Below, piece by piece: positions 5,746-7,513 of a stretch of 64,000 bases of DNA. The notes below the pieces were generated by a model. The model made no database searches. It saw only the letters and a list, made by a program, of their open reading frames with translations, and was not told the origin of the DNA. The first letter of the stretch is position 1, and the number at the start of each line of letters is the position of its first letter. The stretch lies in assembly GCF_053078305.1 (NCBI RefSeq), contig NZ_CP166879.1; one strand, written 5' to 3'. The position numbers and the translations under genes were made by a program.

Positions 5746-7513
5746 TTAAAACGCGACGGCAACGCGCCAGTAAACCGTGAGATGGTCAGGGGCAAGCCAG
5801 TCCGGGTAAACAAGAGGCAGTCCGGCGGTGAACGAACCGGAAACATGACCACTGGTGGTGCTGAGCCCGGCAGCAGCACCCCACAGCGTGCCGGACGAGT
5901 ACGGGTCATCGCTGTCAGAGTGCAGCCAGCCGCCGTCCAGTGCAGTCACTGCACGGACTGTCCCCACATATGGCAGGGAGAACAGAGACCAGGACAGCTC
6001 ATTTCGCAGATAACCGCCGTTATTACCGGAGATATACTGCTCCTTAAAGCCACGCACTGAACTCTCACCCCCGAGGCTCAGTTGTTCCACACCATGAAGA
6101 CGGTCCGGTGACCACTGGGCATAAGCGCTGGTCAGCCACCACACCCTGTCCGTGACGGGGCGCTGAAAACTGGCGCTTAATGACCATTTCCGGAACTGAT
6201 TTACGGGCAGGTCTCCCCTTTTCCCGTGGTCGCTTTCTGCGCCGAACCAGGGCATCCCCCGTGTGAATACCGGATTCAGTGTTCCGACACCCCCCAGAAA
6301 CTTGTGTGTGTGATTCAGCCCGACAGAAAATGAAGTGAGTTTACGGCTGCTGCCCTGAAGCAGAACATCATCCAGATAATTGTGAATAATGCGGTGCTGC
6401 AGACCTCCGGTCAGTGCTGTCTTCATGTCCCCGTTACGGAACAGGACATGCGACAGTCCCAGCCGGTGAGTCTGCAGGTCTCCCGTGGAACGCCACCGCC
6501 AGCCCCGGTTATCAATGGTGCTGAGGTAGTCACTCCATGAATACGTGTAATCCACCAGGGTATAGCCATACGGCAGACTGACACCGGCGGCAAAATTCCT
6601 CGCATCATGTGACACCGAAAAGTCACTGCTCCGTCCTCCGCTGACAAACCAGTTGTCAGCCAGCCCCAGAGGATTATTAAAGGAAAGGACTCCATTTAAC
6701 TGCCCCGTACCGGTATTCTTCTGTCCGCTGTTGTCGATGCCCACGCTCCCTGTGACAGGCCATTCCGGCGATGCCGTCAGTGTCACCACCGACCATCCCT
6801 CACGGTCACCGGGCGATATTTCAATCTGTACCGGCTCCGTACGCAGACGGTTAATCTGCTCCATCCCCTGCTCAATATCCCGCAGGTTCAGAACCTTCCC
6901 CTCCATTCCCGGGAAAACCATCTTCAGGGTGCGGGCAGGAAGGTCAGCGCCTTCCGCCCGGATTTGCTGCAGCCTGCCTTCCATGACCGTTATGTGCAGT
7001 ACGCCCCCTGAAAGGTCCTGCTCTGTCAGAAAGGCCCGGCTGGTGATATATCCCCGGCGTATATAGCCGTCCGTCACGGCATCCGTGACCGCGGTCAGCC
7101 CCGTGATATTCAGACACTGATTCACCCACGGTGCCACCAGTCTGTCGGTTTCTGCAGACGTCAGTCGGGTGGCCCCACTGACAACAATGCGTGACACCGT
7201 AAAGCAGGGACCGTCAGTACCGGCAGACATTTTCCGGAGACGGTATGACAGTCAGCGGCGCACTGCGCTCCAGCGCATCACGCTGACGCTGGTTTTCATC
7301 CAGCAACTGCTGCTGTTGCTGCTGAATGGCACTGCGGTCACCCGGAGACAGCATGGCAGCCGGAGACGAAAACGAAAGAATGCAAAGGCAGGAGAGGAGG
7401 GGAAAATAGCGTGCCACCGGAGAGAAAGTGCGGAGCTTAAATGCGCACTGGCCGGAAACCATACCAGGCAACAACGTTCTGTTCGCCAGTAAGTTATCCT
7501 GCCGGTGCTGCAT
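5746..7513 (-). pseudogene. cdiB: CdiB (TpsB/ShlB-family outer-membrane transporter) interrupted by a +1 frameshift near 7214-7230
   Basis: Two overlapping minus-strand ORFs in different frames: 7214..7513 (99 aa, MQHRQDNLLANRTLL..., signal peptide and Gln-rich stretch) and 5746..7230 (494 aa, POTRA/beta-barrel body). Together about 590 aa, the expected CdiB size. Junction reads ccggaaaatgtctgccggtactga, where one extra nucleotide separates PSPE from SAGTDGP. Confidence 0.65.

Follow-up and report, generated by a model that had tools for sequence, protein, structure and literature searches.

A one-base insertion in cdiB separates the signal peptide from the POTRA domains and barrel of a contact-dependent inhibition transporter

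The cdiB gene on the minus strand of this 64,000-nucleotide stretch of DNA (hereafter the window) is divided between two open reading frames by one extra A. The gene, a well-known one, is cdiB by descent and a pseudogene as sequenced; either its allele is null and private, where by private we mean that it was not seen in any other assembly searched, or a single base is in error. We favor the reading that the extra A is a real, ordinary loss-of-function mutation and not programmed recoding, and give this a probability of about 0.6. The lesion looks recent, because cdiA is still open and cdiB is only two other substitutions away from its closest intact allele.

The first piece of the gene is the minus-strand ORF 7513..7214, which comprises 99 codons and a TGA stop and starts downstream of the native Shine-Dalgarno motif GAGGAG (7517-7522, read from the sequence). 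The second, 7230..5746 on the same strand, comprises 494 codons and a TAA stop; it lies in a different frame, and the two ORFs overlap by 17 nt at 7214-7230. These positions, codon counts and the overlap, as given in the original prediction, agree with both the ORF list and the sequence. Three-frame translation of the junction, ccggaaaatgtctgccggtactga, gives ...VIPSPENVCRY followed by a stop for the first ORF and MSAGTDGP... for the second, exactly as had been read there before.

The proposal that this arrangement reflects one extra base is borne out by alignment to intact alleles, for which our main references were the E. coli STEC17-190 chromosome (99.8% identical) and plasmid p65-4, each with an annotated cdiB CDS of 1767 nt and 588 aa. 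Where both of these read GGAAATG, the window reads GGAAAATG, i.e., an A3 run has become A4, and nine further cdiB alleles that we aligned likewise have A3. The inserted A falls in the coding-strand run that appears as plus-strand T4 at 7230-7233, after codon Glu94 (GAA, 7234-7232), and is the sole gap relative to either reference. With one A removed, the gene becomes a single ORF of 1767 nt and 588 codons. The only other differences from STEC17-190 cdiB are substitutions at 7213 and 6318. The former is a private A-to-C change (GAA to GAC, Glu100Asp in the numbering of the repaired protein) located 17-20 nt downstream of the insertion, at a position where every other examined allele has A. Since the extra base is a difference from homologues and not a statistical pattern, chance is not at issue.

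Judged by its sequence, the split gene is, as originally proposed, cdiB, whose product is the outer-membrane transporter (TpsB type) in a contact-dependent inhibition (CDI) locus, cdiBA(I). Residues 53-588 of the repaired 588-aa protein match PDB entry 6WIM, "Outer membrane transporter CdiB" (E=0, 1209 bits), and differ from it only by scattered substitutions, Pfam recognizes POTRA_2, POTRA_3 and ShlB domains in the repaired protein, and the neighboring gene is 99.8% identical to an annotated cdiA. NCBIfam was less informative when applied to the two fragments: we found only weak, sub-threshold BamA POTRA matches, and none for the 99-aa piece.

Mapping the repaired protein onto the published structure places the break precisely. 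The signal peptide comprises residues 1-52 (7513-7358), with its hydrophobic core at residues 36-49; residue 53 begins the sequence AMLSPG, with which mature CdiB-Ec starts (Guerin et al., 2020, eLife, PMC7644211). The plug helix H1, described in the same work as the first 29 mature residues, AMLSPGDRSAIQQQQQQLLDENQRQRDAL, corresponds to residues 53-81 (7357-7271) in our alignment to 6WIM. The linker that follows was defined as ending at the first conserved cysteine (PMC7644211), which is Cys103 here (7206-7204). Its first part, residues 82-94 (7270-7232), is followed by 5 out-of-frame codons (NVCRY) and the stop at 7216-7214, and its remainder, up to Cys103, is in the 494-codon ORF. Next come POTRA1 (Pfam POTRA_2, residues 104-179, 7203-6976, 7e-23), POTRA2 (POTRA_3, residues 182-234, 6969-6811, 1.5e-18) and the 16-strand barrel (ShlB, PF03865, residues 239-551, 6798-5860, E=5e-91). 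The insertion after Glu94 is therefore mid-linker, between H1 and POTRA1, directly after the residues equivalent to 42-43 of the crystal chain, which are disordered (PMC7644211). As a result, the signal peptide and H1 end up in the 99-codon ORF with 13 residues of the linker and 5 aberrant ones, and the remaining 9 linker residues precede the two POTRA domains and the barrel in the 494-codon ORF.

TpsB proteins, the transporters of type Vb secretion, cross the inner membrane via Sec before they insert into the outer membrane. In a hydrophobicity scan, residues 36-49 of the 5′ fragment were the only core resembling that of a signal peptide, and the first 40 residues of the 494-aa fragment contained none, in agreement with the earlier claim that the barrel has lost its signal peptide. 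Detection of CdiA-Nt in supernatants depended on the presence of the cognate CdiB (PMC7644211). Because Sec entry is required, CdiA-Nt secretion needs the cognate CdiB and the signal peptide is missing, we would expect the barrel fragment to be inactive and CdiA to be missing from the cell surface, in line with the predicted loss of CdiA secretion.

We envisage the following course of events. Translation from the native start ends after 99 codons; once cleaved, its product would be an H1 peptide of ~47 residues, exported by Sec. The POTRA1-POTRA2-barrel portion would be produced only from the weak internal ATG and would carry no signal peptide, so it would stay in the cytoplasm, out of reach of the outer membrane and of the BAM machinery. 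CdiA would still enter the periplasm but, lacking CdiB, would not cross the outer membrane. The locus would stop delivering toxin, and any downstream cdiI would still confer immunity. Were the genome to carry another, intact cdiB, secretion could be restored: in our megablast of complete genomes, cdiB-bearing E. coli carried 1 to 5 copies each.

A different outcome would result if the gene were split but functional, with the 494-aa POTRA-barrel fragment working alone and H1 and the linker being dispensable for CdiA secretion. CdiB variants lacking H1 and the linker are in fact still present and still secrete CdiA-Nt (PMC7644211), but these published deletion variants presumably kept their signal sequence. 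Although H1 is also cut off from the barrel here, since the break lies in the linker between H1 and POTRA1, the behavior of those variants implies that the critical loss is the signal peptide and not the helix. Furthermore, the frame of the 494-codon ORF has a stop 7 codons upstream of the ATG at 7230, and that ATG is preceded by CCGGAAA, a poor match to a Shine-Dalgarno sequence; the native start has GAGGAG. Having neither an N-terminal hydrophobic segment nor an in-frame upstream start, and only a weak ribosome-binding site, the 494-aa fragment has no Sec route to the outer membrane. Of all the explanations that we considered, a functional split gene seems to us the least credible.

The main competitor of a real mutation is a sequencing or assembly artefact, a possibility also raised originally: the organism would have an intact cdiB reading GGAAATG, with a consensus error in a locally weak stretch accounting for the extra A and perhaps also for the A-to-C change at 7213. 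We regard this as possible but clearly the less probable of the two. Changes of 1 nt in homopolymer length are the commonest type of assembly error, and the allele is unique. When positions 5700-7600 were compared by megablast with 5,426 complete E. coli genomes, the region was found in 776 records, and nearly all of the full-length matches, among the matches listed, were one base shorter than the query. With a 101-nt junction query, none of 768 records (928 cdiB copies in 755 complete E. coli genomes) reached >=99% identity, and hence none has A4 in this sequence background; the best match, at 98.0%, corresponds to the gap plus the mismatch at 7213. The exact A4 junction pattern was absent from metagenome contigs and species-representative genomes, whereas the A3 pattern, which served as a positive control, was found in 10 metagenome contigs, all of them with A and not C at 7213. 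Finally, neither the two fragments, nor eight versions with alternative starts, nor the repaired 588-aa protein had an exact entry in a collection of 15 billion proteins. The A4 allele therefore has no independent confirmation from other complete E. coli genomes, metagenome contigs, species representatives or the protein collection, although these sets may simply lack the source genome.

The second private difference, at 7213, bears on the same question. Outside of one cluster of SNPs in cdiA, divergence from STEC17-190 amounts to ~1 SNP per 2.4 kb, and proximity of 17-20 nt between a private change and the insertion would arise by chance in ~2% of cases (a post hoc estimate). This suggests that the insertion and the A-to-C change are one complex event, which might be either mutational or technical; for the artefact explanation, a second private difference so close by counts in its favor. 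We also looked for a quasi-palindrome or template-switch origin of the two changes, and rejected it, as only a trivial 3-4-bp stem (CCG...CGG) is created.

Against an artefact is the shortness of the run: with a technology that makes errors at A3, longer runs should be the first to suffer. A 27.7-kb alignment to STEC17-190 (99.4% identity, 161 substitutions) contains only two indels, the insertion at 7230-7233 and an in-frame 3-nt repeat change at 14289-14291. Within it, none of 299 other 4-nt runs and none of 121 runs of at least 5 nt differ in length. Comparison with ETEC6335 adds another 16.5 kb, in which the only indels are an intergenic one and locally compensated pairs in vgrG, with no net shift of a coding frame. 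Because the longer runs over 27.7 kb are unchanged and the additional 16.5 kb is free of net coding frameshifts, an assembly generally prone to homopolymer errors is argued against, and the lack of other 1-nt coding indels in the window mildly favors a real mutation.

If the extra A is real, full-length CdiB might nonetheless be made by programmed +1 frameshifting or transcriptional slippage, or the A run might act as a reversible ON/OFF switch for CDI. The layout of the frames is permissive, in that the 17-nt overlap would allow a +1 shift anywhere between 7251 and 7217 to restore the protein, the zero-frame UGA stop is followed by C, and a rare Arg codon, CGG, lies two codons before the stop. 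However, every other copy examined has A3, and no allele among them needs a shift; for the same reason, there is neither conservation nor run-length polymorphism at the junction. By inspection, none of the P-site codons in the overlap (GAA, AAU, GUC, UGC, CGG, UAC) re-pairs in the +1 frame, and no prfB-like upstream Shine-Dalgarno-like stimulator is seen. Transcriptional slippage and contingency-locus switching are supported by runs of 7-9 nt, and an A4 run is far below this. An Rfam scan gave no relevant match, only chance sub-threshold matches to eukaryotic families. Recoding, raised originally as a way in which the gene could escape the lesion, thus finds no support in the frames, the other alleles or Rfam, and together with phase variation we consider it very improbable.

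Frameshifted cdiB genes are common among public E. coli genomes and provide precedents for a real mutation here. PGAP labels cdiB as "frameshifted" in seven other complete genomes, representing at least 6 independent events, all at sites other than the one described here. Four of the 40 closest records are in this category: SI-NP020, where allele alignment places the frameshift at about 7208-7210 in window numbering; pMFDS1006657 and the 2014C-3097 plasmid, which have in common a -1 deletion at a G6 tract (6289); and pRM10042-2, with a frameshift at 6067 and a cdiA that is frameshifted too. In a spread sample in which 60 of the 776 records were checked for cdiB integrity, about 8 had a non-intact gene, with 5 truncated, IS-disrupted or reduced to remnants and 3 frameshifted: Eco_70239 (G4 to G3 at 6503-6506), AHB4 (+2 at the G6 tract) and VG35A2 (+2 in a CA repeat near 6305). 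A literature search for reported natural cdiB frameshifts in E. coli returned nothing specific; in public annotation, lesions of this class are already flagged as a matter of routine.

The minus-strand G6 tract at 6289-6296 is intact in the window and is a recurrent frameshift site elsewhere, with two different lesions in the tract and the +2 change of VG35A2 in the adjacent CA repeat (near 6305-6315). This tract could be a true mutational hotspot or a hotspot of long-read homopolymer errors, and some of the public cdiB frameshifts may be long-read errors. The proximity of the insertion in the window to the SI-NP020 frameshift, about 20 nt away, led us to consider the linker as another hotspot, but this was set aside as compatible with chance: the ~7 independent events in the 1767-nt gene make 21 pairs, each with a ~3% chance of lying within 25 nt, and the chance that one pair will lie this close is nearly one in two.

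One could propose from these cases that CdiB loss by small frameshifts is recurrently selected, giving rise to "disarmed but immune" lineages, with the linker and the G6 tract as preferred switch points. Such lineages would keep cdiA and cdiI and stop paying for surface CdiA or being recognized via it, and the window allele would be a fresh example. We find this idea very improbable, and the data lend it no support beyond chance.

Downstream of cdiB, the cdiA frame opens 12 nt after the cdiB stop, and its 5′ part, 1911 codons on the minus strand (5733 to 1), is free of stops to the edge of the window and continues beyond position 1. The cdiA/cdiB region is 99.8% identical to that of STEC17-190, whose annotated cdiA is 9711 nt long. 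The window thus covers the 5′ part of the cdiBA(I) locus, with the cdiA toxin tip and cdiI lying outside it. Within cdiA, the interval from about 4000 to 5000 stands out, in that 13 of the ~22 substitutions on the island relative to STEC17-190 fall in this one 1-kb bin, a clustering that suggests a small recombination patch.

The locus is carried on a genomic island at tRNA-Thr/proA, along with DprA-like, TOTE-type primase and YfjI-family genes. The segment 7500-18590 is 100.0% identical to E. coli SI-NP020, whereas the adjoining cdiB region is only 98.3% identical to SI-NP020 and 99.8% identical to STEC17-190; the island is therefore a mosaic, and a recombination breakpoint lies close to where cdiB begins. 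The DprA-like gene (8101..9000, plus strand) scores below threshold for the dprA equivalog and overlaps a 208-aa ORF without an NCBIfam match (8997..9623, plus strand). The primase gene (9641..12025, minus strand) is annotated in relatives as a TOTE conflict-system archaeo-eukaryotic primase, and the genes at 8101-12025 may constitute a defence or conflict module on the cdiBA island. The in-frame indel at 14289-14291 lies in the YfjI-family ORF (13678..15132, minus strand), where one 3-nt repeat unit (TTA / AAT-type) relative to STEC17-190 adds one codon to an Asn run.

Two further features of the window deserve brief description. At about 27737, the window is missing ~1.0 kb that STEC17-190 has within prfH and the RtcB-family ligase gene; K-12 presumably has a similar deletion in the prfH region. 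Farther along, two tandem VgrG-headed T6SS effector modules occupy 53420..55408 and 55770..62882, both on the minus strand. The latter consists, also on that strand, of the second vgrG (60765..62882), a Tla1/DUF4123-like chaperone ORF (59551..60765), a 984-aa BTH_I2691-family effector (56622..59576) and a 276-aa ORF without an NCBIfam match (55770..56600), which could be an immunity candidate. ETEC6335, which is 99.5% identical on both flanks, does not have module 55770-62882.

If the extra A is real, the chromosomal CDI locus at tRNA-Thr/proA is probably off for toxin delivery. The relevance of this is limited to competition studies with the strain and to its annotation, which should show one frameshifted cdiB pseudogene and not two genes. 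Understanding of CDI and of two-partner secretion is unchanged, and the modest value of the allele is as another data point on cdiB loss, alongside the about 8 in 60 sampled records.

Compared with known systems, the gene is closest to the cdiB of STEC17-190 (WP_135256467.1, NZ_CP075649.1), which is on the same island at the same tRNA-Thr/proA site, with 99.8% nucleotide identity over cdiB and its flanks and with the DprA-like gene, TOTE primase, YfjI, tRNA-Thr and proA as common neighbors; STEC17-190 has A3 and a 588-aa ORF, whereas the window has A4 and the substitutions at 7213 and 6318. It resembles the publicly annotated frameshifted cdiB pseudogenes, which likewise have 1-2-nt indels in short runs or repeats and often an intact cdiA, but none of those has the A4 insertion at 7230-7233. 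It departs from prfB-type +1 frameshifting, which is characterized by a conserved site, a re-pairing P-site codon, a slow A-site codon and a Shine-Dalgarno-like stimulator, a combination that the junction does not present, and from phase-variable contingency loci, whose long simple-sequence tracts vary in length among isolates, as the tract here is only 3-4 nt. The characteristic features of CdiB/TpsB proteins (ShlB/FhaC/HecB) are present, namely a 16-strand Omp85-type barrel, two POTRA domains before it, an experimentally characterized close homologue and an adjacent cdiA; the one that is absent, and that a functional member needs, is a continuous ORF in which the Sec signal peptide is followed by the POTRA domains and barrel. 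That homologue is the CdiB of E. coli EC93 (PDB 6WIM; type Vb, TpsB/Omp85), with whose mature form the repaired protein aligns end to end and with which it has in common the order of signal peptide, H1, Cys linker, POTRA1, POTRA2 and 16-strand barrel, with cdiA directly downstream. What sets the window apart from EC93 is the extra A after codon 94, through which the POTRA domains and barrel are in another frame than the signal peptide and H1, and no full-length protein is encoded.
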